Source: an uncultured Hymenobacter sp.
GTDB taxonomy: Bacteria > Bacteroidota > Bacteroidia > Cytophagales > Hymenobacteraceae
NCBI GenBank assembly: GCA_964277755.1
Contig: CAXYJY010000043.1
Coordinates: 14,237-78,236 of the forward strand
Length of the DNA: 64,000 nucleotides
Direction: 5' to 3'
Part shown: piece after piece, positions 7,293 to 62,498 of the stretch
How the letters are laid out: every line of letters begins with the position of its first letter
Numbering within the stretch: the first letter of the stretch is position 1
Notes under the pieces: model-generated
The model's input: only the letters and a program-made list of their open reading frames with translations
Told to the model about the DNA's origin: nothing
The model's database searches: none
Program-made: the position numbers and the translations under genes

Positions 7293-8840
7293 ATGTCCCT
7301 ATTTTCTACCCCAGCTGCCGGCCGCTTATTGGCGCTACTTTCGATAAGCTGGCTGGCGGGCGGCGCGGTGGCGCAGGCCCAGCGCGTGGGCATCGGCACC
7401 ACTGCGCCCACCCAGATGCTGGACGTGAACGGCACGCTGCGCGTGCGCGCTGCCGCCGGCAGCGGCGTGGGCCGCCTGCTGGGCGTGGCCGACGACGGCA
7501 CCCTGCAAGCCCAGCCGCCGCTGAGCGATATCACCGCCGCCGCCGCGCCAACGGCCCCGGCCAGCCTAGGCACCGTGGCTACCGAGACCGGGCCCATCGC
7601 GGTAGCGGTGCATCCGGCCGGCACCCGCGTGTTGGTGCTCAACACCACGGTCGGCAGCCTGCAAGCCTTCGACGTGAGCGGCAACGGCCGGCCCCTGAGC
7701 CAGGGCAGCGCGCCCACCGGCGGCGGGGCGGCGGCGCTGGCCCTGGACCCGGCCGGCACCCGCGCCTACGTGCTGAACGCGGCCGACAACACCCTGCAAG
7801 CCTACGCGCTGGGCAGCGGCGGCGTGCCCGTCAGCCTGGGTACCGTGGCTACCGGCAGCTCGCCCAAAGCCCTGGCTTTGAACGCGGCCGGCACCCGCCT
7901 CTACGTGCTGACGGGCTCGGGCCGCAGCTTGCAGGCCTTCGATGCTACCATCGGCGTGCCCACCAGCCTGGGCGCGGGCACTACTACCATCGCGCAGCCC
8001 AACGCACTGGCGTTGAACCCGGCCGGCACCCGCGCCTACGTGCTGAGCAGCAGCCAGCTCGAAACCTTCGACCTGAGCGGTGCCGCGCCCGCGAGCCTGG
8101 GGCCGGTGGCCACCAGCGGCGGGCTGGGTTTGGCGGTGAATGCGGCCGGCACCCGTGCCTACGTCAGCACCGGCGGCGGGGGGCAGCTCCAGGTATTTGA
8201 CCTCAGCGGCAATTTGCCCGCCAGCCTGGGCGCGGTGGCGGCGGGCACTGCGCCACAGGCGCTGGCCCTGGCCCCGGCCGGCACCCGCGCCTACGGGCTC
8301 GATTTTGCGGGCAGCGCGCTGCAAACCTTCGACCTTGGCGGCGCGGGGCTGCCCGCCGGCCTGGGCGCTACGCCCACCGGCAGCCTGCCGCAGGCGCTGG
8401 CGTTGAACCCGGCCGGCACCCGCGCCTACGTGGTCAATCTGGGCAATAACACTTTGCAAACCTACCAGGTGGGCACCGACCCGCCGCTGCTGGGCGTGGG
8501 CAGCAATGGCGCGCTGGCCGCCCTCGACCCGGCCACGCTGCCGGGGGCCAGCCTGGTGCCCCAGGCCTACGGCTCGGTGGGCGGCGATGGCACCGACTAC
8601 GGCGCGGCGGGCGGCTACACTATCGCGCACCTCGGCGCGGGCCGGTACCGCCTCAGCTTCGCGGCCGGGCCGCTCAGCACCGCCAACCTAGCCAATGCCG
8701 TGGTGACGGCCACGCTGTTTGGCGGCAGCGCGGGGCTGCTGAGCTACAACGGCGGCGTGGGCTACCTCGATGTGTTCACCTTCACGGCCGCCAGCGCGGC
8801 GGCCGACCGGGGGTTCAGCTTCACCCTGTACCTGCCCTAG
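7293..8840 (+). CDS. Secreted 7-bladed YVTN-like beta-propeller protein, paralog 1
   Basis: Signal peptide ending AQAQ, VGIGTTAPTQMLDVNG motif, 7 xxPAGTRAYV repeats, conserved C-terminal domain ending DRGFSFTLYLP. Confidence 0.85.
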   Translation: MSLFSTPAAGRLLALLSISWLAGGAVAQAQRVGIGTTAPTQMLDVNGTLRVRAAAGSGVGRLLGVADDGTLQAQPPLSDITAAAAPTAPASLGTVATETGPIAVAVHPAGTRVLVLNTTVGSLQAFDVSGNGRPLSQGSAPTGGGAAALALDPAGTRAYVLNAADNTLQAYALGSGGVPVSLGTVATGSSPKALALNAAGTRLYVLTGSGRSLQAFDATIGVPTSLGAGTTTIAQPNALALNPAGTRAYVLSSSQLETFDLSGAAPASLGPVATSGGLGLAVNAAGTRAYVSTGGGGQLQVFDLSGNLPASLGAVAAGTAPQALALAPAGTRAYGLDFAGSALQTFDLGGAGLPAGLGATPTGSLPQALALNPAGTRAYVVNLGNNTLQTYQVGTDPPLLGVGSNGALAALDPATLPGASLVPQAYGSVGGDGTDYGAAGGYTIAHLGAGRYRLSFAAGPLSTANLANAVVTATLFGGSAGLLSYNGGVGYLDVFTFTAASAAADRGFSFTLYLP

Positions 8841-48449: not shown

Positions 48450-48468
48450 TGTTTACTTATGCTCAACA
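48450..48468. promoter_or_regulatory. Candidate operator, copy 1 (TGTTTACTTATGCTCAACA)
   Basis: 15/19 identical to 60550-60568; about 100 nt upstream of MFS gene. Confidence 0.65.
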
Positions 48469-48565
48469 AGCGCACGCAATTTATTAACGCAGATACAACC
48501 CAGCCACAACCAGCCACGCTAAGTTAAAGCCCAATTTTGCCTACCGAAAATACCAGCCGGTAGTC

Positions 48566-49897
48566 ATGGTTAAGCTTTTTCCCTCTACACCGTTACAACG
48601 CTGGCAGTTGCGCACGGCCGCCGGGCTGTTTGTGGGCTACAGCGCCTACTACCTGTGCCGCTCCAACCTGGCGGTGGCCGCGCCGCTGCTCATCCGCGAG
48701 TTTGGCAGCCAGGGACTCAATAAAGAAGTGATGGGCGAAATCGCCTCGCTGGGCGTGCTGTGCTACGCCGCGGGCAAAGTGGTGAATGGCGCGCTGGGCG
48801 ACCTGATTGGCGGCAAGCGCATTTTCCTGCTGGGTATGGTGGGCGCCGTGGTGGCCACGGTGGTTTTCGGGCTGGGGCAGGGCTTGGCGGTGTTCTTCGG
48901 GGCGTGGGCCGTGAATCGGCTAATCCAAGCGATGGGCTGGGCCGGGCTGGTCAAAATCACGGCCAACTGGTTTTCGTACCGCTCCTACGGCAAGATAATG
49001 GGGCTGCTCAGCATCAGCTACTTGGCGGGCGACATCGTGGCCAAGCTAACCCTGGGCCAGCTTTTGGCGCTGGGCGTGGGCTGGCGCGGGCTGTTTGGGG
49101 CGGCGGCGGGCGCGCTGGCGCTGGTGGCGCTGGCCACCTGGCTCACCCTGGCCCCCACGCCCGCCAGCGTGGGGTTGCCCGACCCGCCCACCAATCCCGA
49201 CAGCTTGTTTAACGACAAAACCCAGGCCGGGCAAACCACCGCGCTGCGGGTGCTGCTGGGCACGTACTTCCGCAGCCCCGCTTTTCTGCTGATGCTGGGG
49301 TTATCGTTCGGTCTCACGGCGCTCAAGGAAGCGCTCAGCTTCTGGATACCGACCTACCTGGTGGAGGCGGCGCACCTCTCCGAAAGCGAGGCCTCGCAGT
49401 ACAGCGCGCTGTACGCGGCTTTCGGCATCGCCTCGACGCTCGGGGCGGGCTACCTCTCCGATGCCTGGCTGCGCGGGCAGCGGGGGCCGCTGCTGCTAGT
49501 GGCGAGCCTGGGCTTGGTGCCCGCGCTGTGGCTGATGGCCCAGCCTGCTACCGGCCTCCTGCTGCCGCTGGTGCTCACCTCGCTCGCGGGGCTGCTGCTG
49601 CTGGGGCCCTACTCGTTTCTGGCCGGGGCCATGTCCCTCGACCTCGGGGGGCGGCAGGGCGCGGCCACGGCGGCCGGCCTCATCGACGCGGTGGGCTACG
49701 CCGGAAGCACCGGCGCGCTGTGGCTGACCGGCCGGCTGGCCGAGCGCCAGGGCTGGGGCGCGGCCTTTCTGGCGCTGGCCGGGCTGGCGGCGGCCACGGC
49801 CGTGGCCGCCCTGGTCTTCTATTACACGCAGGAGCGGCGGCCCCGCCAAGCGGCTGCGCGCGAGGTACTGGCAGTCGTGCCGGCTGTTGACTTATAA
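48566..49897 (+). CDS. MFS transporter, organophosphate:Pi antiporter (GlpT/UhpT-like)
   Basis: YLCRSNL, GKVVNGALGDLIGGK, QAMGW, NWFS...GKIMG, AAGLIDAVGYAG. Confidence 0.88.
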   Translation: MVKLFPSTPLQRWQLRTAAGLFVGYSAYYLCRSNLAVAAPLLIREFGSQGLNKEVMGEIASLGVLCYAAGKVVNGALGDLIGGKRIFLLGMVGAVVATVVFGLGQGLAVFFGAWAVNRLIQAMGWAGLVKITANWFSYRSYGKIMGLLSISYLAGDIVAKLTLGQLLALGVGWRGLFGAAAGALALVALATWLTLAPTPASVGLPDPPTNPDSLFNDKTQAGQTTALRVLLGTYFRSPAFLLMLGLSFGLTALKEALSFWIPTYLVEAAHLSESEASQYSALYAAFGIASTLGAGYLSDAWLRGQRGPLLLVASLGLVPALWLMAQPATGLLLPLVLTSLAGLLLLGPYSFLAGAMSLDLGGRQGAATAAGLIDAVGYAGSTGALWLTGRLAERQGWGAAFLALAGLAAATAVAALVFYYTQERRPRQAAAREVLAVVPAVDL

Positions 49898-50182
49898 GAA
49901 AAAACGGGCCACAATTAGGTAACGATTTGATGACTGCCCGGCGACACTGGCCAGGCGAGCCGCCCGGAACTTTGCTTCTATAAAACAGGACTTTTCGGGG
50001 TGGCTAGCCAGCTGGCTCTTTGATAAAAACCGGCCGCTGGCGAGCAGCCCGGTGCGGGCCTGTGACGCTCGCATACTGCTTTTGCGCTTCTTCCTCTCTG
50101 GCCGGCTGGTGGCTCCCCAGCCGGCCGCTCAGGGCACGGGCGGCCCGCGCCGGGTGGTTTAGCTTTTCAATATTCTTGGTTT

Positions 50183-50779
50183 ATGGATAGCATTATGAAG
50201 CTGGTAATCAGTCCGCAACAGGCGGTGGCGCAGGTGTTCGGCTTGTACGAAACGCGCGGCGGGGCCGACTACATCGGCGAGCCGGTGTCGCAGCTCGAGC
50301 ACATGTGGCAGGCCGCCGCGCTGGCCGAGGCCGCCGGGGCCGACGACGAGGTAGTGCTGGCCGCCTTCTTCCACGACCTGGGCCACCTCTGCGCCCCCGA
50401 CCCGGCCGCCGAGTCGATGGCCGGCTTCGGGGCTGTGAACCACGAAAAGCTGGGGGCCGACTACCTGCGGGCGCGGGGGTTTTCGGCGCGCGTAGCGCGG
50501 CTGGTCGAAAGCCACGTGCAAGCCAAGCGCTACCTCACTTACCAGTACCCCAGCTACCTGCGGCAGCTTTCGGAGGCCAGCCTGGCCACGCTCACCTTCC
50601 AGGGCGGGCCGATGAGCGCGGCCGAGGCCGCCGCCTTCGAGCAAGACCCCGATGCCGACCTCATCCTGCAACTGCGGCAGTGGGACGAGCAGGCCAAGGA
50701 AGTCAACCAGCCGGTGGGCCGCCTGGCTCGCCTCAAGGAGCTGGCGCTGCGGCATTTGCTGAGCCAATCGGCAAGCTAA
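50183..50779 (+). CDS. PhnZ-like HD-domain diiron oxygenase (phosphonate-degradation associated)
   Basis: YIGEPVSQLEH, FHDLGH, NHEKLG, ESHVQAKRYL, LSEAS, RQWDEQAK; alternative start 50195. Confidence 0.88.
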   Translation: MDSIMKLVISPQQAVAQVFGLYETRGGADYIGEPVSQLEHMWQAAALAEAAGADDEVVLAAFFHDLGHLCAPDPAAESMAGFGAVNHEKLGADYLRARGFSARVARLVESHVQAKRYLTYQYPSYLRQLSEASLATLTFQGGPMSAAEAAAFEQDPDADLILQLRQWDEQAKEVNQPVGRLARLKELALRHLLSQSAS

Positions 50780-50784
50780 AAACC

Positions 50785-50812
50785 AGCCGCCGCCCGCGGC
50801 CGGGCGGCTTTT
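50785..50812 (+). terminator. Possible weak terminator/attenuator between HD gene and susC
   Basis: AGCCGCC...GGCGGCT followed by TTT. Confidence 0.45.
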
Positions 50813-50844
50813 CGCGCACTACTCACATCCACTTCTTTCTTTTT

Positions 50845-53800
50845 ATGCGGAGTATCTACAAGCAAGTTTCGGTGCTGGGGCTTGGGCTGGCTTTGGGGCT
50901 GGCCCCGCGCCTAGCGCTGGCCCAAAGCGCCCTCGGCGGCACCATCACCGACGATAAAAAGCAGCCGCTGCCCGGCGCGAGTGTGGTGATAAAAGGTACC
51001 AGCAAGGGCACGACCACCGACGCCAACGGGCACTTCTCGCTGCCCACGCAGCCCGGCGACGTGCTGGTTATCAGCTCGCTGGGCACGGTGACGCAGGAAG
51101 TGACGGTGGGCAGCCAAAGCAGCCTCACCGTGGCGCTCGCCGCCGACAACAAGCAGCTCGACGAGGTGGTAGTGACCGCGCTGGGCGTGAAAAAGGAGGT
51201 GCGCAAAATCGGCTACGCGGTGCAGGAGCTCAACGGCGAGGACATCGTGAAGGCCCGCGACCCCAACCCCATCACCGGCCTCACGGGCAAGATTGCCGGG
51301 CTCTCGGTGGGCCCGTCGGCCGAGCTGCTGCGCGCCCCCAACGTGCTGTTGCGCGGCAACGCGGTGGGCCTGTACGTGGTCGATGGCTTCCCGATAAACA
51401 CCGACACCTGGAACATCAGCCCCGACGATATCGAAACCTACACCGTGCTGAAAGGGCCGGCCGCCGCCGCCCTCTACGGCAACCGGGCCATCGCGGGGGC
51501 CATCCTCATTACCACCAAAAAGGGCAACCGCAACAAGAAGGGCTTCACGGTGGAGCTCAATAGCAGCAACGTCATTCAATCGGGCTTCCTGGCATTTCCG
51601 CGCTTGCAGGACTCCTACGGGCCGGGCGAGAACACGCAGTACCAGTTCGTAAACGGCAAGGGCGGCGCGCCGGGCGGCGTGGATGGCGACTACGATGTGT
51701 GGGGGCCGTATTTCGCGGGCCAGCTCATTCCGCAGTACGACTCGCCCATCGTGAACGGCGTGCGCCAGGGCACGCCCTGGGTGGCACGGGGCAAAAACAA
51801 CTTGCGCAACTTCCTGCGCCCGGGCTTTCAGACCAATAACAACCTCGCGCTGAGCGCCAACGGCGATACCTATACTACGCGCTTCTCGGTATCGCAGCAA
51901 AAGCAGAACAGCATCGTGCCCAACACGGGCCTCAATATCGTCAATTTCAACCTGTACGGCGGCTTCAACCCGAGTCCGCGCTTCAAGATTGAAGCCAACG
52001 TCAACTTCAACCGGCAGTTCACCGACAACTTCCCCGACGTGGACTACGGCCCCAACAGCCTGCTTTACAACGTGGGCATCTGGACGGGGGCCGACTGGGA
52101 CGTGAACGCGCCCGACATTCGGGGCATCTGGCAGCCGGGGCAGGTGGGCACGCAGTCGGTATTTGCCGAGTACCAGCGCTACCACAACCCCTGGCTGGTG
52201 GTGGAGAAATGGAAGCGCGGGCACTACAAAAACGACATCTACGGCTACCTCACCGGTAATTTCAAGATTGATAATCACCTGAGCGCCACGCTGCGCACCC
52301 AAATCAATACCTACGGCCTGCTGCGCACCGAGCAAATGCCATTTTCGGCCCACCCCTACGGCCGCGAGGGCAACCTGGGCGACTACCGCGAAGACCGCCG
52401 CAACCTGTTCGACAACAACGCGGAGGGCTTTTTGAGCTACAACTACGACCTGGGCGGCGCGCAGAAGTTCTTCAACCTGAGCGGCCTGGTGGGCGGCAAC
52501 GTCCGCAACTTCACCTACAACTCGAACTGGACCTCGACCGACTACCTCAACGTGCCCGAGGTGTACTCGTTCAGCAACTCGCTGAACCCGGTGCAGAGCA
52601 CGAGCTTCAGTTCGCAGATGCGGGTGCTGAGCGCCTACTACTCGCTCGACCTGAGCCTGGGCAAGTACGCCACGCTGTCGAGCACGGGGCGCGTGGACCG
52701 CACCTCGGCCTTGCGCGTGCCCACCAGCTTTTTCTATCCCAGCGTGTCGCTGGCCTCGGTGGTGTCCGACTACGTGAAGCTGCCAGCGGCTATTTCCTTC
52801 CTGAAGGTGCGGGCCTCCTACGCCAACATTCGGGACGGGGGCACGGCTACCAGCATCGGGCCGGCCCCGTTCAACTCGATTACCGCCCTGGGCGGGCAAA
52901 CGCTGGCCAGCAACCCCAGCACCGACCCGCTGTTCTACAATCCGCTGGGGTACGGCAACGTGTATGCCTCGCCTTATAATGGCCCCACCTACGCGCTGCA
53001 ATCCTTTTATACGACTAGCAAGCCCTACAACAACCAAACGGCGGGCTACGGTACCAATAACCTCTTCACGCCCGGCATTCAGCCCACGACCCGCGTAAAC
53101 TACGAGCAGGGCGTGGACGTCAAGTTTCTGCAAAACCGTCTGGGCCTGAGCTTCACCGCTTTCCAATACGTGAACGGGCCGGCCATCCTGGCCAACCCCA
53201 CCTCGACCGCTACGGGCTACACGACGCAGTACGTCAACGCCCTGAAAACCAAGACTACCGGGTATGAAGTCAGCCTGACCGGCACGCCCGTGCAGAACGC
53301 CAACGGCTTTGGTTGGGACGTGCTGGTGAACTACTCGACCTTCACCCCCAAGTACCTGGAGCTGCCCAGCGGCCAGCAGTACTACAACACGTTCTTCCAG
53401 CAGGGCGACCGCACCGATAAGTTTTACGGCACGGCCTTCGTGCGCACGCCCGACGGGCAGATTGTGAACGACGCGGGCGGCAAGCCCCTGGCCAACCCGG
53501 TAGCGCAGTATTTGGGCAACCTGAACGCCAAGTTCAACTGGAGCATCTACAACAAGTTTCACTATAAGTCGCTGGCGCTGGCCTTCCAGTTTGATGGCGC
53601 GGTGGGCGGCGTGACCACCGATTATATGTTCCGCCAGACCATGCGTGGCGGGCGCAATATCCTCACCGCCGAGGGTGCCCTCGGCGATGCCCGTTACCAG
53701 GACTGGTCGAACTACGGCAAAACTGGCTACTCCGGCACCTACGTGGGCGAGGGCGTGCAGGTGGCCAACGGGGCCAGCATCAACTACGACTCGCAGACGG

Positions 53801-54150
53801 GCGCCATCCTCAACGGCGACGCCCTGCGCTTCAGCCCCAACACGACCAAAGCCTTCGTGCAAGACTACGTGAGCCGCTACTACGGCGTGGCCGAGGCCAG
53901 CCTGATGAGCAAGACCTTCGCCAAGCTGCGCGAAGTAACCGTGACCTACGAGCTGCCGCGCACGCTGCTCAGCAATGGCTTCATTCAGAAGGTATCGGTG
54001 TCGCTCATCGGCCGCAACCTGCTGTATTTCTACGGCGACAAGCGCTTCCGCGACGTGGACATCGACCAGTACAACGGGGCCGTGTCGCAGACGGGCTTGC
54101 AGTCGCCCACGGTGCGCAGCTACGGGCTGAATCTGAACGCTACTTTTTAA
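50845..54150 (+). CDS. SusC/RagA TonB-dependent transporter
   Basis: LPGASVVIKGT, LDEVVVTALG, VLKGPAAAALYG, ILITTKKG, C-terminal YGLNLNATF. Confidence 0.96.
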   Translation: MRSIYKQVSVLGLGLALGLAPRLALAQSALGGTITDDKKQPLPGASVVIKGTSKGTTTDANGHFSLPTQPGDVLVISSLGTVTQEVTVGSQSSLTVALAADNKQLDEVVVTALGVKKEVRKIGYAVQELNGEDIVKARDPNPITGLTGKIAGLSVGPSAELLRAPNVLLRGNAVGLYVVDGFPINTDTWNISPDDIETYTVLKGPAAAALYGNRAIAGAILITTKKGNRNKKGFTVELNSSNVIQSGFLAFPRLQDSYGPGENTQYQFVNGKGGAPGGVDGDYDVWGPYFAGQLIPQYDSPIVNGVRQGTPWVARGKNNLRNFLRPGFQTNNNLALSANGDTYTTRFSVSQQKQNSIVPNTGLNIVNFNLYGGFNPSPRFKIEANVNFNRQFTDNFPDVDYGPNSLLYNVGIWTGADWDVNAPDIRGIWQPGQVGTQSVFAEYQRYHNPWLVVEKWKRGHYKNDIYGYLTGNFKIDNHLSATLRTQINTYGLLRTEQMPFSAHPYGREGNLGDYREDRRNLFDNNAEGFLSYNYDLGGAQKFFNLSGLVGGNVRNFTYNSNWTSTDYLNVPEVYSFSNSLNPVQSTSFSSQMRVLSAYYSLDLSLGKYATLSSTGRVDRTSALRVPTSFFYPSVSLASVVSDYVKLPAAISFLKVRASYANIRDGGTATSIGPAPFNSITALGGQTLASNPSTDPLFYNPLGYGNVYASPYNGPTYALQSFYTTSKPYNNQTAGYGTNNLFTPGIQPTTRVNYEQGVDVKFLQNRLGLSFTAFQYVNGPAILANPTSTATGYTTQYVNALKTKTTGYEVSLTGTPVQNANGFGWDVLVNYSTFTPKYLELPSGQQYYNTFFQQGDRTDKFYGTAFVRTPDGQIVNDAGGKPLANPVAQYLGNLNAKFNWSIYNKFHYKSLALAFQFDGAVGGVTTDYMFRQTMRGGRNILTAEGALGDARYQDWSNYGKTGYSGTYVGEGVQVANGASINYDSQTGAILNGDALRFSPNTTKAFVQDYVSRYYGVAEASLMSKTFAKLREVTVTYELPRTLLSNGFIQKVSVSLIGRNLLYFYGDKRFRDVDIDQYNGAVSQTGLQSPTVRSYGLNLNATF

Positions 54151-54175
54151 GGAGTAGCTGACATTGAAAACGCTT

Positions 54176-54269
54176 GTCATGCTGAACGCAGTGAAGCATC
54201 TCGCGTGGTGAAGTAATCTCTAACGTCAGCAACGAAGCGAGCGAGATGCTTCACTGCGTTCAGCATGAC
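54176..54269. repeat. GTCA-type REP doublet
   Basis: GTCATGCTGAACGCAGTGAAGCATCTCGC ... GCGAGATGCTTCACTGCGTTCAGCATGAC. Confidence 0.92.
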
Positions 54270-54303
54270 CCGAACAAGTAACTGTCAGCTCTGCATCATC
54301 CCT

Positions 54304-55887
54304 ATGAAAAATATCTTCAAAACCGCTGCCCTCCTGGGCCTACTCACCCTCTCGGCCACGAGCTGTAATAAGACGCTCGACGAGCTGACCATCAATGAAA
54401 ACAAGCCTAACGCCGTGCCGGCCTCGCTGCTGCTCACGGGCGTGCTCAACGATGCCTACGAGGCACCCAACGGCAGCTACGAGGTTTGGAACCAGTACTA
54501 CCTCAACAACTACGACTACTACGGCAACAACCGCTACGACTTCGGCAGCGGCACGGCCTTCTACACCACACTCAAGAACGTGGGTTTGATGGAGCAGCAG
54601 GCCCTAGCGGCCGGCTCGCCGGCCACCAATCCTTATGCGGCGCTGGGCAATTTCTTCCGGGCTTACCTCTTCACCCGCATGAGCTTGCAAATGGGCGACG
54701 TGCCGCTGAGCCAGGCCCTGCTGGGCCTCGACAACCTGACGCCCGCCTACGACGCGCAGAAGGCCGTGTTCGTGCAGTCGTTTAAGTGGCTGGAGCAGGC
54801 CAATGCCGACCTCACGACGCTCATCGCCAGCGGCACCACTACCGTGAACGGCGATATTTATTTCAACGGTAATCTGCGCCAGTGGCAGAAAGTGGTGAAC
54901 GCGCTGCGCCTGCGTCTGCTGCTGCACCTGAGCAAGAAAACCGGCGACGCCGACCTCAACGTGGCCGGCCAGTTTGCGGCCATCGTGGGCAACCCCACCA
55001 AGTACCCCATCATGACCAGCAACGCCGACAACATGCAGTACGTGTTCGTGTCGGCCACCAACAACTTCTACCCCAACAACAACCGCAACTTTGGGCAGGA
55101 CGGCTCGCGCAAGAATATGTCGGCCACCTACGTGGGCCTGCTCACGCAGCTGCAAGACCCGCGCGTGTACGCCACCTGCGAGCCCGCCCGCTACCTGGTC
55201 GATACCCAGGGCCAGAGCTCGACCAGCTACGCCTCCTTCGTGGGGGCCGATGCCGGCCTCGACCTAGGTGTGATGTATAACAACGCCGGCCAGGGGCGTT
55301 ACTCGTTTCTGAACCGCTACCGCTACTTCCGCACCCTGCTGGGCGAGCCCAGCATCCAGATTGGCTACCCCGAGCAGTGCCTCAACATCGCCGAAGGCAT
55401 CAACCGGGGCTGGCTGAGCGGCGGCAACGCCGAGACGTACTACACGGCCGGCATTCAGGCCTCGATGGCTTCGTACAGCCTGCCCACCAGTGGTACCTAC
55501 ACCGCTTATTTCTACCGCCCCGGCTCGACGGACGTCACCAACACCGGCAACTACGATACCTATAACATCCCCGTCAGCTACGCCACCTACTACGCCCAGA
55601 GCGGCGTGCAGTACGCGGGCGGCAGCACCGGCCTGACCCAGATTTTGCAGCAGAAATACCTGGCTTTGTTCCGCCACTCGGGCCTGGAGGCGTACTACAA
55701 CTACCGCCGCACCGGCGTGCCCACTTTCACTACCGGCGCGGGCACTGGCAACAGCGGCCGCATCGCGCTGCGCTTCCGCTACCCCGCTTCCGAGCGCACG
55801 GCCAATACCACGAATTACCAGGCCGCGCTGGCCAGCCAGTACGGCGGCAACGACGACATCAACGGCGTGATGTACGTGCTGAAGTAG
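54304..55887 (+). CDS. SusD/RagB family lipoprotein
   Basis: Lipobox ATSC, MGDVPLSQA, QWQKVVNALRLR, QQKYLALF, NYRRTG, RFRYP. Confidence 0.94.
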   Translation: MKNIFKTAALLGLLTLSATSCNKTLDELTINENKPNAVPASLLLTGVLNDAYEAPNGSYEVWNQYYLNNYDYYGNNRYDFGSGTAFYTTLKNVGLMEQQALAAGSPATNPYAALGNFFRAYLFTRMSLQMGDVPLSQALLGLDNLTPAYDAQKAVFVQSFKWLEQANADLTTLIASGTTTVNGDIYFNGNLRQWQKVVNALRLRLLLHLSKKTGDADLNVAGQFAAIVGNPTKYPIMTSNADNMQYVFVSATNNFYPNNNRNFGQDGSRKNMSATYVGLLTQLQDPRVYATCEPARYLVDTQGQSSTSYASFVGADAGLDLGVMYNNAGQGRYSFLNRYRYFRTLLGEPSIQIGYPEQCLNIAEGINRGWLSGGNAETYYTAGIQASMASYSLPTSGTYTAYFYRPGSTDVTNTGNYDTYNIPVSYATYYAQSGVQYAGGSTGLTQILQQKYLALFRHSGLEAYYNYRRTGVPTFTTGAGTGNSGRIALRFRYPASERTANTTNYQAALASQYGGNDDINGVMYVLK

Positions 55888-55905
55888 AGTGCTCGCCGGG
55901 CGCGG

Positions 55906-56026
55906 ACCTCACCCCCTAGCCCCCTCTCCAAAAAAGAGGGGGAACTAGTTTTTAGCTATGGCTTCTAGAAGCTAGAACTAGGGCTAGTCCCCCCTCTTTT
56001 TTGGAGTGGGGGCTAGGGGGTGAGGT
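55906..56026. repeat. CCCCTCTCC-type REP doublet
   Basis: ACCTCACCCCCTAGCCCCCTCTCCAAAAAAGAGGGGG and inverted arm. Confidence 0.88.
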
Positions 56027-56061
56027 TCACGCAAGACGAGCCTACCAAAACCTTTTTCAAA

Positions 56062-57159
56062 ATGAAGCTCCTCCTCACCGCCGCTTTCGCCGCCCTCACC
56101 CTCGCCGCCCAGGCCCAGACTACCCCCAGGCTGCGCACCGAAAACGTGGTGCTCATCACCCTCGACGGCATGCGCTGGCAGGAAATATTCGGCGGGGCCG
56201 ACACCGCGCTGTTTCGCCAGAGCAAGCACTACTACACCGACCGCAAAACGCTGCACAAGGACTTTGGCCAAGCCACGCCCGAGCAGCGTCGCCAAGTGCT
56301 GATGCCCTTTTTGTGGGGCACCGTGGCCCAGCAGGGGCAGCTCTATGGCAACCGCCCGGCCGGCAGCCTGGTCAACATCACGAATACCATGCGCTTCTCG
56401 TACCCCGGCTACAACGAAATCCTGACCGGGGCCGCCGACGATGCCCGCATCCACAGCAACGACCCGCTCGACAACCCCAACAAGTCGGTGCTGGAAGTGC
56501 TGAGCCAGCAGCCCGCCTTCAAAGGCAAGGTAGCCGCCTTCGGCTCGTGGGAGGCCTTCCCCTACATCCTCAACGAAAAGCGCAGCAACCTGCCCGTGAA
56601 CGCCGGCCAGCGCCTGGCCACGGGCAAAAACCTCACGCCGGGCGAGCAATTGCTTAATCAGCTGGAGGTAGCCTCGCCCAGCCCGTTTGGCGAGGAGCGG
56701 CTTGATGCCTTCACCTACGGCTACGCGCTCGAATACCTGAAGAAAAACAAGCCCCGCGTGCTCTACGTGGGCTTTGGCGACACCGACGACTGGGCTCACG
56801 GCGGCGAGTACGGCGCGTATCTGCATTCGGCGCAGTACACCGACGGCTTCATTCGGCAGCTGTGGGAGTATTTGCAAAGCGACCCGCAGTACCGGGGTAA
56901 AACCACGCTGCTGCTCACCACCGACCACGGCCGCGGCCCGGCCGGCACCCAGTGGCAGCACCACGGCCGCGAGGTAGCCGGGGCCGACCAAATCTGGCTG
57001 GCCGCCCTCGGCCCCGACACGCCCGCCCTGGGCATGGCCACCACCGGCCAGCTCTACCAAAACCAGGTGGCCGCCACCCTAGCCGCGCTGCTGGGCCAAC
57101 CCTACGCGCCCACGCCCGCTACGGGCAAGCCCGTGCCGGCGGTGCTGGGGCAGAAGTAG
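56062..57159 (+). CDS. Secreted alkaline-phosphatase-superfamily enzyme A
   Basis: Signal peptide AQAQ; TLDGMRW, FSYPGY, DTDDWAH, TTDHG, QHHG. Confidence 0.88.
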   Translation: MKLLLTAAFAALTLAAQAQTTPRLRTENVVLITLDGMRWQEIFGGADTALFRQSKHYYTDRKTLHKDFGQATPEQRRQVLMPFLWGTVAQQGQLYGNRPAGSLVNITNTMRFSYPGYNEILTGAADDARIHSNDPLDNPNKSVLEVLSQQPAFKGKVAAFGSWEAFPYILNEKRSNLPVNAGQRLATGKNLTPGEQLLNQLEVASPSPFGEERLDAFTYGYALEYLKKNKPRVLYVGFGDTDDWAHGGEYGAYLHSAQYTDGFIRQLWEYLQSDPQYRGKTTLLLTTDHGRGPAGTQWQHHGREVAGADQIWLAALGPDTPALGMATTGQLYQNQVAATLAALLGQPYAPTPATGKPVPAVLGQK

Positions 57160-57178
57160 TTGCGTTTGTCATACGGTC

Positions 57179-57274
57179 GTCATGCAGAGCGCAGCGAAGC
57201 ATCTCGCGTGTTAGCGTCTGCCAACGTCAGGGTTTACTGCGCTACGCGAGATGCTTCGCTGCGCTCTGCATGAC
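57179..57274. repeat. CGTC-type REP doublet
   Basis: GTCATGCAGAGCGCAGCGAAGCATCTCGCG ... CGCGAGATGCTTCGCTGCGCTCTGCATGAC. Confidence 0.92.
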
Positions 57275-57289
57275 CTTGCTTTATAGTTT

Positions 57290-58528
57290 ATGAAAAGCAC
57301 TCTCCTCTTCCTCCTCACCTTGCTGAGCCTCGCCGCCCACGCCCAGCCGCGCGCCCGCAAGGTGGTCTTTATCATCGCCGACGGCATCCCGGCCGACGTG
57401 CTGGAAAAAGCCACCACGCCGAACATCAGAAAAGTAATCGCCAGCGGTACCTACCTGCCCGCCTACGTGGGCGGCGGCCTCGGCACGTATACCCAAACGC
57501 CCACTATCTCGGCCCCCGGCTACATGGACCTCATCACCGGCACCTGGGGCTACAAGCACAACGTGTGGGACAATGCCGTGCAGGCCCCCAACTACCAGTA
57601 CAAGAATATTTTTCGCCTGCTGAAAGAAGTCCGGCCGACCGCTAAAATCGGTATTTTCTCGACCTGGCTCGACAACCGCACCAAGCTCGTGGGCGAGGGC
57701 CTGCCCGCCGCCGGCAACCTGAAATTTGACTACCACGCCGATGGCTATGAGCTCGACACCGTGGCCTTTCGGCACGACAAGGGCAGCCTCTACACCCACG
57801 CCATCGACGATAGGGTAGTGGCCGAAGCCGCCCAGTGCCTGCGCCAAAATGCCCCCGACCTGAGCTGGATTTACCTGGAGCATACCGACGACATCGGCCA
57901 CCGCTACGGCGACAGCCCGCAGCAGCAGCAGGCCCTGGCCTACCTCGATGCCCAGGTGGGCCAGGTGTGGGCCGCCCTGCAAGCGCGCACCCGGCAGCAC
58001 GCCGAAGACTGGCTGCTGGTGCTCACCACCGACCACGGCCGCGACGCCGCCACTGGCCGCAATCACGGCGGGCAGTCGGCACGCGAGCGCGCCACCTGGC
58101 TGGTGCTGAGTACCAAAGACGCGAACGCCTACGCCCGCCGCCCGCCCGTGGCCATCGTGGATGTGCTGCCCACTATTGCCCGCTTTATGCAACTGCCGCT
58201 GTCCGAGGATACCCAGCGCGAGCTCGACGGCGTGCCGCTCATCGGGCCCGTATCGCTGGCGCAGCCCGTGGCCACGGCCACGCCCGACAGCCTGCGCCTA
58301 CGCTGGACGGCCCTGAGCACCCGCCCCGAAAAAGTGAAGGTATGGGTGGCTACCACCAATAATTTCAAAACCGGCGGCCCCGACCAGTACCGCCTGCTGG
58401 CCACCGTGCCGCTGGCCCGTCAGCGCCTGGCCATCAGCCGCCAGCAGGCCGGGTTGGCGAATTATGAAATCGTGAAGCTTGTGCTCGAAGGGGAGCAGAA
58501 TACAGTTAATTACTGGCTGCTGCCGTAG
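57290..58528 (+). CDS. Secreted alkaline-phosphatase-superfamily enzyme B (NPP-like) with C-terminal Ig-like domain
   Basis: IIADGIP, TISAPGY, EHTDDIGH, TTDHG, NHGG. Confidence 0.88.
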   Translation: MKSTLLFLLTLLSLAAHAQPRARKVVFIIADGIPADVLEKATTPNIRKVIASGTYLPAYVGGGLGTYTQTPTISAPGYMDLITGTWGYKHNVWDNAVQAPNYQYKNIFRLLKEVRPTAKIGIFSTWLDNRTKLVGEGLPAAGNLKFDYHADGYELDTVAFRHDKGSLYTHAIDDRVVAEAAQCLRQNAPDLSWIYLEHTDDIGHRYGDSPQQQQALAYLDAQVGQVWAALQARTRQHAEDWLLVLTTDHGRDAATGRNHGGQSARERATWLVLSTKDANAYARRPPVAIVDVLPTIARFMQLPLSEDTQRELDGVPLIGPVSLAQPVATATPDSLRLRWTALSTRPEKVKVWVATTNNFKTGGPDQYRLLATVPLARQRLAISRQQAGLANYEIVKLVLEGEQNTVNYWLLP

Positions 58529-58575
58529 AAAACGGCTGAGTGGGGCTACGACAAGTTTTTCAGAATCTTACCCTG

Positions 58576-59745
58576 ATGAAGCGCATGAAAAAAGTCGTCT
58601 TGTTATTGGCTCTGCTGCGCGCGGCCCTGGGGCTGGCCCAGGCGCAAGCTACCTCGTTTAAGACGGAGAACGTCATTCTGGTTACCATCGATGGGCTGCG
58701 CTGGCAGGAGGTGTTTGGTGGGGCCGACTCGGTGGCGCTGCGCCGCCGGCCCCGTGCCTTCAGCCTGCCCGTGCTGCGGGCAGCGGCCCCCACGCAGGCA
58801 GCCGCCCGGCGCCGGGCGCTGCTACCGTTTTTGTGGAGTGCTGTGGCTGCGCAGGGTCAGCTCTATGGTAGCCGCGCCTACGGCAACTACCTCAACGTGA
58901 CCAATAAGGCCTGCCTCTCGTACCCCGGCTACAACGAAATGCTGACCGGCTTCATCGCCGATAAAAGCATTCGCAACAACGCCTGTGTCTTCAACCCCAA
59001 CGCCACGGTGCTGGAGGTTATCGGCCGCCACCCGTCCTTTCGGCAGCAAGTGCAGGTGTACGGCTCCTGGCAGGCGTTTCCCTACATCCTGAACGCCCCG
59101 CGCAGCGGCCTGCCCGTGAATGCGGGCTGGCAGCCCGCCACCGGCCCCGGCCTCTCGGCCCGCGAGCTGGCCCTCAATGCGCAGCTCGGGGCCGTGCCCG
59201 CCGCCGCGCGCGGCCCCGAGCGCCCCGACTCGCTCACCTTCGGCTACGCTTTCGCGCAGCTCCGGCGCACGCACCCGCGGGTGCTGTACCTGGCGTTGGG
59301 CGACACCGACGAGTACGCCCACGCCGGCCAGTACGCGGCCTACGCGCAGGCTGCCCAGCGCGCCGACCAGTATCTGGCCCAGCTCTGGGCCTACGTGCAA
59401 AGCGACCCGCACTACCAAGGCAAAACCACGCTGCTCGTCACCACCGACCACGGCCGGGGCCGCAACGCCTGCGGCTTCTGGACGCAGCACAGCCGTTGGC
59501 TATCTGGCTCCGACCAAACTTGGCTGGCCGTGCTCGGCCCCGACACCCCGCCCACCGGCGAGCAGCGGGCCCCCGGCCAGCTCTACCAGCACCAATTGGC
59601 CCAAACCATCGCTACCCTGCTGGGTGTGCCGTACGCGCCCGGCAAGCCCACGGGCGCGCCCATCGAAGGTATTTTGGGCCGCCCGCCGCTGGCTGCGGCA
59701 GTTAGCGAGGCTGCCCCCGCTGCCAGCGTCGCGCCGCTGCGTTAG
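58576..59745 (+). CDS. Secreted alkaline-phosphatase-superfamily enzyme C, paralog of enzyme A
   Basis: ENVILVTIDGLRWQEVFGGAD, LSYPGYNE, DTDEYAH, TTDHGRG. Confidence 0.88.
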   Translation: MKRMKKVVLLLALLRAALGLAQAQATSFKTENVILVTIDGLRWQEVFGGADSVALRRRPRAFSLPVLRAAAPTQAAARRRALLPFLWSAVAAQGQLYGSRAYGNYLNVTNKACLSYPGYNEMLTGFIADKSIRNNACVFNPNATVLEVIGRHPSFRQQVQVYGSWQAFPYILNAPRSGLPVNAGWQPATGPGLSARELALNAQLGAVPAAARGPERPDSLTFGYAFAQLRRTHPRVLYLALGDTDEYAHAGQYAAYAQAAQRADQYLAQLWAYVQSDPHYQGKTTLLVTTDHGRGRNACGFWTQHSRWLSGSDQTWLAVLGPDTPPTGEQRAPGQLYQHQLAQTIATLLGVPYAPGKPTGAPIEGILGRPPLAAAVSEAAPAASVAPLR

Positions 59746-59782
59746 GCTGGGCAGCGGCGCGACGCTGGCTAAGATAGTTGTG

Positions 59783-60535
59783 CTACCCCTTGAAAACCAG
59801 CGCTGGGGCCAGCGCAGCTTGCAGCTGCTGGTGCAGCTCGACCAGCGAATCTAGCAGGCCATCATGAGGGTAGGCGGCTAGCTGCGCGTGGGTGTGGGTA
59901 CCGTTTACCAAACCCAGGCTGCGGGCGCAGCCGGCGCGGCGGCCCGATTCGAGGTCGGAAGGCGTGTCGCCCACGTTCCAGACTTGGCACGGGTCGGTGA
60001 TGCCAAATACCTGCATGGCCCGCTGAATCATGAGCGGGGCGGGGCGGCCCTCGGCCACCTCATCGCTGCTGATAGACACGTCGATAACCGAGTAGCGGTT
60101 GCCCCGGCGCTGGGCGTCGAGGTTCACGTCCCAGCCCAGGCGGTGCAGGATAATGTCTGTCACCTCGCGGTAAAAACCCGTGGTGAGCGCGATGCGGATG
60201 CCCTGGCTGCGGAGGTACGCGAACAACTCCAGGCAGCCCTCGGTAGGTAGCACCGGCTGGGTGCGGTAGTGGTTTTCCAGTACCTCCCGAAACACCTGGT
60301 ACGAGCGCTCGACGTGGGGCGTCAGCTCGGCCAGCGCAGTTGCGGCACCCAGCTGCTCGCGCCAGAACTGCTCAAACACGGCCCGCTTGGCCTGCCCCTG
60401 CACGGCCAGGATGCGAGCGGCCGAGGCCCGCAGGCCGGTAGCGACGGCGGCCTGGGCAAAGCAGGCCTCTACCTCGTGCGCGTCGCGCACGGTGGTACCG
60501 GCCATGTCGAAAATGATGAGTTGCGGTGCGTCCAT
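59783..60535 (-). CDS. Phosphonatase-like HAD hydrolase (PhnX-like)
   Basis: FDMAGTT (DxAGT), cap QGQAK lysine, TTGF, GRPAP, VGDTPSD. Confidence 0.87.
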   Translation of the reverse strand: MDAPQLIIFDMAGTTVRDAHEVEACFAQAAVATGLRASAARILAVQGQAKRAVFEQFWREQLGAATALAELTPHVERSYQVFREVLENHYRTQPVLPTEGCLELFAYLRSQGIRIALTTGFYREVTDIILHRLGWDVNLDAQRRGNRYSVIDVSISSDEVAEGRPAPLMIQRAMQVFGITDPCQVWNVGDTPSDLESGRRAGCARSLGLVNGTHTHAQLAAYPHDGLLDSLVELHQQLQAALAPALVFKG

Positions 60536-60549
60536 AAACTAAAACTTAC

Positions 60550-60568
60550 TGTTTACTAATAGGCAACA
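60550..60568. promoter_or_regulatory. Candidate operator, copy 2 (TGTTTACTAATAGGCAACA)
   Basis: Palindrome with 2 mismatched pairs; abuts TACATTTG -7 box (60567-60574, minus) of HAD gene; in divergent HAD/XRE region. Confidence 0.72.
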
Positions 60569-60646
60569 AATGTACACGCCAGTGCCAGCCCGACTTGTTG
60601 CCAGGGCAGCACCTTTGCGTTATGTTTTTGTGCCGAACTTGCCCGC

Positions 60647-61222
60647 ATGAAGCACGACAAGCTGAGTTTAATCGGCCTCCGCATCCTGGAGTTGCGCAAG
60701 GCTAAAAAGATGAGCTTGCGCGAACTGGCCAAGCGTAGCGGCCTGTCGGCCGGCCTGCTCTCCAAAATTGAGAACTTTCGCACTGTGCCCTCGCTCGGCG
60801 TGCTGGTCGAAATCGCCAACTCGCTGGAAGTCGACGTAGCGGTGCTGGTCAGGAACATCAACGGCAACCCGGCCGCGCCCTACCTGCTGGTGCGCGCCGG
60901 TGAGGGCCGCTCCGAGCAGCGCGAAGATTCTAAAGGCTTGCTCTATAAATATTTGCTTTCGCAAGACCTGGGTGCCTACACGCTGCGCGTGAATGAAGTC
61001 CACATCAGTCCGCAGACGTACCGCAAGCCGCTTTCTACCAATGCCCTCGAACTGCTGCACGTGCTGGAAGGCACGGTACAGTACGGTTTCAAGGACGAGG
61101 AAGTGACCCTGGGGCCCGGCGACACGCTGTACTTCGATGGGCTGGCCGCCCACTCGGTGCGCAACGCTACCGAGCAGCCTGCCCGGCTGTTTAAGGTGTA
61201 CCTGCTGCGCCCCACCGACTAA
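60647..61222 (+). CDS. XRE-family HTH regulator with cupin domain
   Basis: LRELAKRSGLSAGLLSKIEN...PSL; ELLHVLEG, GDTLYFDG, HSVRN. Confidence 0.92.
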   Translation: MKHDKLSLIGLRILELRKAKKMSLRELAKRSGLSAGLLSKIENFRTVPSLGVLVEIANSLEVDVAVLVRNINGNPAAPYLLVRAGEGRSEQREDSKGLLYKYLLSQDLGAYTLRVNEVHISPQTYRKPLSTNALELLHVLEGTVQYGFKDEEVTLGPGDTLYFDGLAAHSVRNATEQPARLFKVYLLRPTD

Positions 61223-61343
61223 AGTAACGCAACTAAGAGCCGGTGAGATGTTGTAAAAATAACGTAGCCGTAACGCTTAGTGCGTTTCATTGGCGGCAAC
61301 GACTAGTAGGTTTGTGTGGCGGTATCAATCAGCCCATTTGGCC

Positions 61344-62498
61344 ATGCACAATTCGTTTGATGTAATCATAGTGGGCGCGGGCGCGCTGGGGGCCTTTCAC
61401 GCCTATTTTGCCTTGCAAAAGGGCCTGCGGGTGCTGCTGCTTGAAAAAGATGCCCGCCCGATGGAAGCCACCGTGCGCAACTTCGGGCAGATTATCACCT
61501 CGGGCATGGCCGAGGGCGAGTGGTTCGACTACGCCCGCGTGAGCCTTGCCACGTACCAGAAAATTCAGGCTGAGTACGACATTTCTATTCGCCAGAACGG
61601 CTCGCTCTACCTGGCCTCGACGCTGCTCGAAATGCAGGTACTGGAAGAGAAGCACGCGCGATACCAAGCCATCAACTACCCCTCGCGGGTGCTCACGGCC
61701 GCGCAGTGCCAGCAGCGGCTGCCCGCCGTGCAAGCCAGCTACTGCGTGGGCGGCCTGCTGTTTGAGCAAGAGGTCACGGCCGAGCCCGACCAGTTGATTC
61801 ACCGCCTGTTGGCCTACCTGGTGGCCCGCTTTCAGCTCGACTACCGCCCCGCCACGCCGGTGCGCGAGGTGACGACCAGCGACGCGGGCGCTACCGTAAT
61901 TGACGCGCGTGGCCAGCGCTACACGGCCGCCCAGGTGCTGGTGTGCAACGGCCGCGACTGCCAGCTGCTCTTCCCCGATGTGTTCGCGCAGAGCGACTTG
62001 CAGCTCGTGAAGCTGCAAATGCTGGCTACCTACCCGCTGCCGCAGGTGCGGCTGCCAGGCTCGGTGCTCACGGGCCTGAGCTTGCGGCGCTACGCGGCCT
62101 TCAAGGCGTGCCCGTCGTTCGGCGCGCTAATGGCCGAGGACATGGCCCCCGACCTGCGCGAATGGGGCATTCACCTCCTGTTTAAGCAGGCCGTAGACGG
62201 CTCCATCATCATCGGCGATACCCACGAATACGCCGACTTGGCCCAAGCCGCTAACCTGGATTTCAACAACGCTGACCACCTCAACCAGCTGATGCTGCGC
62301 GAAGCCCGACGCATCGTGGACCTGCCCGACTGGCGCATGCAGCGCGCCTGGAATGGCTACTACACCCAGAGCAAGTCGGCCGAGGTATTTCGACATTCGC
62401 CCGACCCGCGCATCCACATTGTCACAGGCATCGGCGGCAAAGGCATGACGAGCGCCTGCGGCTTTGCGCAGCAGCACGCAGGGCAGCTATGGGGTTAG
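61344..62498 (+). CDS. FAD-dependent oxidoreductase, phosphonate-associated clade
   Basis: VGAGALG, ATVRNFGQI, KLQML, LTGLSLRRY, IIGDTHEY, GIGGKGMT. Confidence 0.87.
   Translation: MHNSFDVIIVGAGALGAFHAYFALQKGLRVLLLEKDARPMEATVRNFGQIITSGMAEGEWFDYARVSLATYQKIQAEYDISIRQNGSLYLASTLLEMQVLEEKHARYQAINYPSRVLTAAQCQQRLPAVQASYCVGGLLFEQEVTAEPDQLIHRLLAYLVARFQLDYRPATPVREVTTSDAGATVIDARGQRYTAAQVLVCNGRDCQLLFPDVFAQSDLQLVKLQMLATYPLPQVRLPGSVLTGLSLRRYAAFKACPSFGALMAEDMAPDLREWGIHLLFKQAVDGSIIIGDTHEYADLAQAANLDFNNADHLNQLMLREARRIVDLPDWRMQRAWNGYYTQSKSAEVFRHSPDPRIHIVTGIGGKGMTSACGFAQQHAGQLWG

Follow-up and report, generated by a model that had tools for sequence, protein, structure and literature searches.

Which regulator, if any, ties uptake to carbon-phosphorus (C-P) bond cleavage in a predicted phosphonate locus of the Bacteroidota? 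The question is raised by a 64,000-nucleotide stretch of DNA (the window) from an uncultured Hymenobacter sp. (GenBank assembly GCA_964277755.1, contig CAXYJY010000043.1, positions 14,237 to 78,236 of the forward strand), in which genes for an MFS permease, an HD-domain protein, SusC/D proteins and phosphatase-superfamily enzymes are followed by divergent HAD and XRE-cupin genes, the gene context that an earlier note on this DNA had described. That note had singled out two similar 19-bp palindromes, one at each end of the cluster, as a shared operator of the XRE-cupin protein. We find that the two 19-mers are members of a set of at least four conserved predicted operators, most likely those of this regulator.

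Two similar 19-bp sites

Both 19-mers, TGTTTACTTATGCTCAACA (operator 1A) and TGTTTACTAATAGGCAACA (operator 2), lie where they had been placed, 12.1 kb apart, and agree at 15 of 19 positions. This likeness is by itself no evidence, because such partners are common within the window: a random 19-mer taken from it has on average 2.1 other partners matching at 15 or more positions, and 57% have at least one. The degenerate pattern that the earlier note proposed matches 1A and operator 2 only, both in the window and, as exact matches, in the 5.63 Mb genome, in a search that is circular, the pattern having been derived from these two sites. The ends, TGTT...AACA, are perfectly symmetric, but the palindromes as wholes are imperfect, with 5 of 9 symmetric pairs in 1A and 7 of 9 in operator 2. 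What sets the sites beyond chance is their conservation and genome-wide specificity rather than their raw similarity.

Conservation of the predicted operators across relatives

In a family sample of 201 genomes, XRE-cupin orthologs of at least 69% identity occur in 16 other genomes, together with one homolog at 35%, and all 16 genomes with such an ortholog carry the same syntenic cluster. Every one of the syntenic loci (17/17) has operator 2 in the same position, with the consensus TGTTkACwAATATGCAACAAA. When the HAD-XRE spacers were aligned with MAFFT, operator 2 and the adjoining CAAAnnTA proved almost invariant, and the flanks, 14-18 nt toward the HAD ATG and about 35 nt on the opposite side, were unconserved. 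Operator 2 recurs in 25/25 further species-level loci; its spacing to the XRE ATG is 96-99 nt in 23 loci, and 64 and 72 nt in the two most divergent.

A matrix built from operator 2 recovered three more conserved positions: 1A, 3A and 4B. Positions relative to promoters are given here on the convention that the -7 box of Bacteroidota sigma-A promoters, TAnnTTTG, occupies -12 to -5 (PMC9723704), with transcription starts inferred from it; nAnnTTTG is enriched 4.7-fold upstream of genes in this genome. For 1A, the best site starts at -94 in 11 of 14 orthologous loci and at -95 in one; it is shifted by 11 bp in two and absent from one (L032). For 3A, which is present in all 16 loci carrying the MFS gene, the distance from the start of the operator to the G of the -7 box is exactly 90 nt in 13 of 14 genomes and 79 nt in the other. 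The off-norm spacings lie at the HD promoter of L026 (H. setariae; 79 versus 90 nt) and at the MFS promoters of L037 and L038 (site start at -83 versus -94). Three of the four exceptions at 1A and 3A thus differ by exactly 11 bp, the fourth genome being L032, which lacks 1A. Steps of this size amount to a natural deletion of one helical turn that keeps the operator on the same face of the helix, which argues that helical phase matters.

4B was found in 25/25 loci, scoring at least 8 bits in 24 of them. In the window it stands at the 99.987th percentile; in other species it can be strong (for example AGTTTCCTATTAGGCAACA, 25 bits). The symmetrized matrix, built from 47 sites, reads TGTTTmC-N5-GkAAACA around a core of TGTT-N11-AACA, and symmetric variants such as AGTT...AACT occur, as expected of a dimer site.

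Phylogenetic footprinting, which the earlier note had put forward as a check, thus bears the motif out: at each end of the cluster it is kept in the orthologous loci. Its two sites are both real, though too few: we count at least four operator positions, at no fewer than four and probably five promoters. The order of genes behind 1A also stands; the MFS gene and the HD-susCD run have separate predicted promoters.

Genome-wide specificity

We scanned the symmetric matrix over the 5.63 Mb genome, with the reversed genome as control (maximum 21.7 bits). Three of the four top matches fall within the locus: operator 2 at 30.6 bits, 3A at 24.3 bits and 1A at 23.4 bits. Only two matches outside the locus exceed the control, both inside the AT-rich starts of open reading frames (ORFs). 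One, at C36:47605 (24.3 bits), lies in the first codons of a CrtI-like ORF (MFTKKQK...), and the other, at C52:10141 (23.1 bits), within the start of a small AT-rich ORF; both were judged chance matches and rejected as regulon members. The motif is local, not that of a global regulator, and the predicted sites are confined to neighboring genes, as for local XRE-cupin factors.

Linking the motif to the XRE-cupin regulator

XRE-cupin transcription factors have been described as dimeric local inhibitors of neighboring metabolic genes that recognize palindromic motifs and in every case occupy a site in the intergenic region beside the gene that encodes them (PMC7901475). The protein encoded here, P0001, matches HTH_3 (PF01381; E 1.1e-11, residues 13-66) and cupin (PF07883; E 7.1e-11, residues 119-184), with a weak AraC_binding match (E 3e-4). 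In its AlphaFold2 model (pLDDT 83), five helices at the N-terminus precede a cupin barrel; the best Foldseek match of that model (m1d828e3d25df) in the PDB is the XRE-cupin structure 1Y9Q (E 2.6e-13). Like other members, P0001 has a palindromic motif beside its own gene, computationally predicted operator 2, which lies 79 nt upstream of the XRE ATG. The recognition helix and turn, GLLSKIENFRTVPSL, do not vary among orthologs whose overall identity is about 40%.

XRE-cupin and the PbfD-like oxidase of the locus occur in the same 18 of the 201 family genomes. Co-occurrence argues less strongly for the XRE-cupin protein as the binder than does the way in which the motif accompanies its gene from one gene context to another. 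In 10 of 17 distant loci (L067-L087), the best matrix match of the whole 4-6.5 kb locus lies at most 300 bp upstream of XRE; the other seven are mostly the remotest homologs or lack an intergenic upstream region. In a Bacteroidota metagenome-assembled genome, an XRE-cupin gene whose product is 50% identical is flanked by phnA, phnY and pbfA, and its upstream spacer contains two sites at a distance of 30 bp. In a third Hymenobacteraceae genus, at 35% identity, the regulator gene and a pbfA-like gene have a perfect palindrome, ACTTTGTTTAATAATAATAAACAAAGT, between them. In Victivallales (Lentisphaerota), at 41-42% identity, the core TTGACTAATATTCAA occurs in tandem copies 30 bp apart, in a spacer shared with a divergent gene for an EamA-type membrane protein, whose match to the phosphonate-associated family TIGR03340 is far under cut-off. 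Counts of exact palindromic dyads upstream of the distant orthologs did not exceed those in shuffles, since the palindromes of the sites are imperfect; scanning with the matrix succeeded.

The cupin domain itself has a set of invariant residues (R92, G97, Y100, G142, G158, D159, F163, H169 and Y185). A metal-binding triad was considered and rejected: only H169 is invariant, H138 and E141 vary, and an HppE-like iron site is not supported. After 1Y9Q, the next fold matches are phosphonate enzymes that combine an HTH-like part with a cupin (HppE, HEPD, MPnS, PhpD and Psf4), with E values of 1e-8 to 1e-11, TM 0.35-0.4 and 15-20% identity. This likeness is probably one of architecture only.

Confinement of the motif to the locus, co-occurrence, the passage of the motif with the regulator among orthologs of 35-53% identity and the invariant recognition helix all support the proposal that the XRE-cupin protein binds the sites at both ends. 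We consider it likely, from comparative sequence evidence, that the sites are operators of this locus-encoded protein.

A proposed mechanism for local regulation

The XRE-cupin factor most likely would bind as a dimer to the imperfect palindrome and would serve the promoters of the MFS gene (1A), the HD-susCD-phosphatase run (3A and an auxiliary site, 3B), the HAD and XRE genes (operator 2) and the PbfD-like oxidase gene (4B). With predicted operators at promoters of both uptake and cleavage genes, outer-membrane uptake, inner-membrane uptake and C-P bond cleavage would be joined in one local regulon.

The protein probably represses and is released by a ligand. Operator 2, between the divergent HAD and XRE genes and beside a real, conserved HAD -7 box (TAcaTTTG), covers -6 to +13 of the HAD promoter and so does occupy the repressor position that had been ascribed to it. 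Here and at the oxidase promoter, where 4B spans -36 to -18, the operator covers the core promoter, and protein bound to it would keep RNA polymerase out. In the MFS and HD promoters, a strong site at -94 to -76 that keeps its helical phase to the -7 box is followed by weaker operator-like elements down to -33, and repression would need either cooperative binding to these proximal elements or a clash with an activator. Characterized XRE-cupin factors suggest, by analogy, that a small molecule held in the cupin domain would free the protein from DNA. The candidates are probably 2-aminoethylphosphonate (AEP), (R)-1-hydroxy-AEP and phosphonoacetaldehyde, since the genes that this regulator lineage adjoins (PbfD/PhnX-like, PbfA, PhnA/PhnY and PhnZ-like) all meet at these compounds.

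Several points weigh against this account. There is no regulator-less locus among the 201 genomes, so that the regulator and the remainder of the island cannot be told apart by co-occurrence. All promoter positions derive from matches to the -7 box, and the presumed ligand is guessed from gene neighborhood only. The strong operators of the MFS and HD promoters are centered at -85, which is unusual for simple occlusion and resembles the positions of class-I activators. The proximal elements are weak, 1B scoring 0.6 bits and 3B being degenerate in this genome, and 4B is also degenerate here (8.3 bits).

The region between the distal operators and the -7 boxes bears on how the regulator works. 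Two to four xxAAC repeats with an 11-bp period stand in fixed phase at -62 to -34 before the -7 boxes of three promoters, and such an array is also found before susC in a second genus (g4); the palindrome TAAAC-N3-GTTTA was not found in the two g4 loci. In the MFS promoter the repeats (48484-88, 48495-99 and 48506-10) overlap 1B, which reaches the 99.88th percentile of the window and is kept in register with the -7 box, and weak peaks of the matrix score recur at fixed registers around it. In L028 the counterpart of 3B, TGGTGACTAATCGGCGACA, reaches 15.6 bits; it agrees at 16 of 19 positions with TGTTGACTAATAGGCAACA, a composite form put together from operator 2 variants that were observed. The elements between 1A or 3A and the box could be weak auxiliary operators or activator sites of the response-regulator type. 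Neither the MFS nor the HD promoter has a TTTG -33 element; the conserved xxAAC repeats are there instead. Genome-wide, three repeats plus a box gave 8 matches versus 5 in the control, arrays of at least five repeats 11 versus 20, and a matrix of the 24-nt module 143 versus 156.

The only look-alike of these modules elsewhere in the genome is at C25:79292-79360 (L119 ~3290-3360), where three tandem 22-bp repeats (CCAACAATTCnnTAACC) are followed by GAACTTTG, upstream of a CarboxypepD_reg/OMP_b-brl_4 TonB-dependent receptor gene; no phosphorus-related function was found among this receptor's neighbors.

Alternative explanations

The main rival keeps the same protein but gives it two functions: it would repress the HAD and oxidase genes and activate the MFS and HD-susCD promoters from -85, possibly using the TAAC modules at -62 to -34 when bound to ligand, in the manner of an AraC-like switch. 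The fixed spacing of 1A and 3A, with its 11-bp exceptions, is what such a switch would predict, and phase-locking is equally expected of cooperative or looping repression. The replacement of a -33 element by xxAAC repeats that are not enriched elsewhere in the genome would fit a local binder acting on them, and the cupin domain has its weak AraC_binding match; the TAAC modules, however, are absent upstream of distant orthologs that keep the palindrome, all characterized XRE-cupin factors are inhibitors (PMC7901475), and the transcription starts on which the argument depends are inferred from -7 boxes. We regard dual function as unlikely, and repression relieved by a ligand as the better account.

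A bolder interpretation, which taken as a whole we also hold to be doubtful, would make the XRE-cupin lineage a cross-phylum aminophosphonate sensor, responding to AEP, 1-hydroxy-AEP or phosphonoacetaldehyde and acting from -85 together with the xxAAC arrays as more than a simple repressor. In one variant the ligand-bound protein itself may engage the arrays as an AraC-like switch; in another it may gate a phosphate-starvation response regulator, giving AND logic in which phosphate is low and phosphonate present. In a further step, the fold likeness to HppE, HEPD and MPnS may come from shared ancestry of phosphonate-binding cupins.

Far less probable still is that the palindrome, or at least the xxAAC repeats, are bound by a regulator encoded elsewhere, for instance one of PhoB/OmpR type reporting phosphate starvation, in which case the XRE-cupin protein would bind something else. 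In favor of this, two xxAC units spaced by 11 bp can also be made out in the 19-mer, the arrays recur in fixed phase at three promoters, before susC in g4 and, in similar form, before the receptor gene at C25:79292, and phosphorus-regulated SusCD loci are known in Flavobacterium (PMC8115612). The palindrome, however, is confined to the locus and absent elsewhere in the genome, and it accompanies XRE-cupin genes in other contexts and phyla, where the TAAC arrays do not go with it. Unlike Pho boxes, 3A and 4B retain both palindromic arms but only one direct-repeat unit, symmetric changes occur within the sites (AGTT...AACT), and the repeat arrays are not enriched genome-wide. For the xxAAC arrays taken by themselves, the searches speak neither for nor against a Pho-type regulator. 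There is also no pstB to anchor a Pho regulon: a genome search with the PstB family TIGR00972 found none over the family cut-off (best 154 versus 343 bits), and the high-affinity phosphate transporter PstSCAB seems absent from the genome, as known for many Flavobacterium strains (PMC8115612).

Chance resemblance among AT-rich promoter sequences of a GC-rich genome, which could draw on the many 15/19 partners in the window and on the overlap of the right edge of operator 2 with a -7 box that is conserved anyway, is refuted for practical purposes by the conservation of all 19 positions in up to 42 loci between variable flanks, by two further conserved sites that fit the same matrix, by the lead of its matches in the genome ranking and by the recurrence of the motif across phyla beside the regulator.

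Genes and promoter elements of the locus

The features of the locus are collected in Table 1. The cluster as a whole is patchy: 17 of the 201 sampled Hymenobacteraceae genomes carry it, none of them without the regulator, a pattern that suggests an accessory island moving as one unit. In several species (L032-L036), the roughly 3 kb that separate susD from the second phosphatase-family gene do not match the window's first phosphatase paralog; the regulator and operators are thus constant beside a set of enzymes that varies. The neighboring TetR gene (63416-) was dismissed as a candidate regulator, as it lies next to the locus in no ortholog.

Table 1. Predicted genes, operators and promoter elements of the phosphonate locus (window coordinates unless a locus is named; starts are inferred transcription starts).
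Feature	Position	Strand	Sequence	Placement and evidence
Operator 1A	48450..48468		TGTTTACTTATGCTCAACA	Upstream of MFS gene, -94..-76 from inferred start
Operator-like element 1B (weak)	48482..48500		TATTAACGCAGATACAACC	-62..-44 of MFS promoter, 32 bp after 1A
xxAAC arrays	48484-48510, 49919-49945, 61259-61274; genus g4: L039 ~7785-7830, L040 ~8270-8315			
Candidate MFS -7 box	48532..48539	+	CAATTTTG	Start ~48544; nAnnTTTG in 14/14 orthologs
GlpT/AepP-like MFS organophosphate permease	48566..49897	+		PF07690; GlpT/PgtP-type NCBIfam scores under cut-offs
Operator 3A	49885..49903		TGTTGACTTATAAGAAAAA	Overlaps MFS stop codon, -94..-76 of HD-susCD promoter
Auxiliary operator 3B (predicted)	49928..49946		TGATGACTGCCCGGCGACA	-51..-33 of HD-susCD promoter; conserved
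Candidate HD-susCD-phosphatase -7 box	49967..49974	+	GAACTTTG	Start ~49979
PhnZ-like HD-domain phosphonate oxygenase	50183..50779	+		TIGR03276, 213.9 bits vs cut-off 214.6
SusC-like TonB-dependent transporter	50911-54150	+		Pfam CarbopepD_reg_2, Plug
SusD-like lipoprotein	54265-55887	+		Pfam SusD-like_2
Three alkaline-phosphatase-superfamily genes	56020-57159, 57290-58528, 58540-59745	+		Pfam Phosphodiest, Sulfatase, Metalloenzyme
PhnX-like HAD hydrolase (phosphonatase-like)	59783..60535	-		TIGR03351, 174 bits, under cut-off 218.9; Pfam HAD
Operator 2	60550..60568		TGTTTACTAATAGGCAACA	-6..+13 of HAD promoter, -72..-54 of XRE promoter
HAD -7 box	60574-60567	-	TAcaTTTG	Start ~60562; overlaps operator 2 by 2 nt
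Candidate XRE-cupin -7 box	60610..60617	+	CACCTTTG	Start ~60622; conserved alignment block
XRE-cupin transcription factor P0001 (proposed binder)	60647..61222	+		191 aa; HTH_3, Cupin_2
Module 4A	61257..61275		ATAAC-N6-GTAAC	-62..-44 of oxidase promoter; conserved in 15 loci and genus g4
Operator 4B (degenerate in this genome)	61283..61301		CGTTTCATTGGCGGCAACG	-36..-18 of oxidase promoter
Oxidase -7 box	61307..61314	+	TAGGTTTG	Start ~61319
PbfD-like FAD oxidase	61344..62498	+		TIGR03364, 386 bits vs cut-off 285

The MFS permease resembles AepP, itself a GlpT-related permease (PMC8316502), and the family matched by the oxidase, TIGR03364, is that of PbfD, which produces phosphonoacetaldehyde from aminophosphonates (PMC10590968). 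The longest ORF of the oxidase begins at TTG 61290. Ortholog alignments and the conserved -7 box at 61307-14 favor ATG 61344 instead, from which the protein begins MHNSFDVIIVGAG..., an ordinary FAD-binding N-terminus; on this sequence evidence the predicted true start is ATG 61344, not TTG 61290.

The candidate -7 boxes are themselves conserved. At the HD-susCD promoter the TTTG core is kept in 14/14 Hymenobacter loci (GAmCTTTG in 13, GTCCTTTG in one); the CAAAnnTA of the HAD box is kept in 24/25 further loci; and TAnnTTTG (TTTA in one locus) follows 4B by 5 nt in all 15 Hymenobacter loci. An alternative, more distal promoter for the MFS gene, its -7 box fused to 1B in the way seen at the HAD promoter, was not adopted: an acceptable TAnnTTTG is found there in only about half of the orthologs, and the TT before the TG looks like an extended operator (TTTGTT...AACAAA).

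At 60595-60602, -27 to -20 of the XRE promoter, lies a half-site, TTGTTGCC. Together with GGCAACAA of operator 2, at a distance of 26 bp, it makes up an inverted repeat of 8 bp; only the closest relatives keep it (the window, L025 and partly L026), and it could be an extra autoregulatory half-site. In L037 (genome G072), a GC-rich palindromic element of about 150 bp, GGCGCCTCACCCCCCGG...CCGGGGGGTGAGGCG, which resembles repetitive extragenic palindromes or miniature inverted-repeat transposable elements, is inserted between the XRE stop codon and the oxidase promoter, and the 4A/4B promoter module is still intact beside the oxidase gene despite the insertion.

Significance

Phosphonates are a large pool of organic phosphorus. 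A conserved regulator with its predicted operator would offer a testable regulon linking outer-membrane capture, inner-membrane transport and two routes of C-P cleavage, and the ligand of the cupin domain would give a handle on the true substrate of an unusual SusCD locus. The motif is ready for use in annotating similar loci in Bacteroidota and Lentisphaerota and is a possible part for a phosphonate biosensor.

Our literature search found no relevant account of an XRE-cupin regulator in connection with phosphonate, or with SusC loci. The principle of a local XRE-cupin repressor with a palindromic operator is known already. What appears to be new is the target pathway, phosphonate, for such a regulator with a defined predicted operator conserved in two phyla; the advance is incremental unless the phase-locked architecture at -85 works in a new way.

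Comparison with known systems

SusCD-type phosphorus loci of Bacteroidota have been described only within the phosphate-starvation response: the PusCD phosphate utilization loci of Flavobacterium belong to the PHO regulon and are induced by phosphate depletion, with no mention of a local regulator of XRE-cupin type or of its operator (PMC8115612). The substrate-specific regulators described for aminophosphonate catabolism in the literature consulted are of LysR type and come from Proteobacteria (PMC8316502). These proteins, AepR, PhnR and PalR, resemble the Hymenobacter regulator in being substrate-specific and in lying beside genes for AEP uptake and degradation, including AepP, but they belong to an unrelated family, are activators rather than probable repressors and have no link to SusCD (PMC8316502). 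P0001 has no LysR domains, Pfam giving only HTH_3-type and cupin matches. GntR-type regulators of aminophosphonate catabolism are also known.

Similar in its logic is AusR, an experimentally tested GntR-family repressor of the alginate polysaccharide utilization locus (PUL) of Zobellia galactanivorans (PMC7641319). It too is encoded within the locus it controls, its operators are single, double or triple, its motif is otherwise almost absent from the genome, and where repression is strong the operators overlap the TAnnTTTG -7 box, whereas at the promoter of AusR itself they lie farther off (PMC7641319). The Hymenobacter regulator, too, has only a distant predicted site at its own promoter. The two differ in family (GntR/FadR for AusR), in operator and in substrate, which for AusR is a polysaccharide, and the Hymenobacter regulator is known from sequence alone. 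P0001 has no GntR domain in Pfam, and its motif differs from the AusR operator, TKGTN2-3ACMA.

PuuR of E. coli is a putrescine-responsive XRE-cupin repressor, freed from its catabolic cluster by an amine-type ligand. The domain architecture is the same and the logic would be similar by analogy; the operator and the pathway differ, and P0001 is not a PuuR ortholog (NF007408, 30.1 bits versus a cut-off of 211).

A parallel in build is offered by the XRE-cupin factors of Pseudomonas (PauR, PsdR, ErfA, PA0535, PA1359, PA1884 and PA4987; Trouillon et al. 2021, PMC7901475), which share the N-terminal XRE helix-turn-helix and the C-terminal cupin sensor, were modeled on 1Y9Q and likewise combine a palindromic motif, a site beside the regulator's own gene and a small local uptake or catabolic regulon that moves as a unit. 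In sequence they are distant, matching only at the level of Pfam domains. The term "phosphon" occurs nowhere in PMC7901475, and the predicted targets of the Hymenobacter regulator are SusCD uptake and phosphonate catabolism. It also differs in its setting, a member of the Bacteroidota with -33/-7 promoters, and in the placement of two of its predicted operators, phase-locked at -94 to -76 rather than over the promoter.

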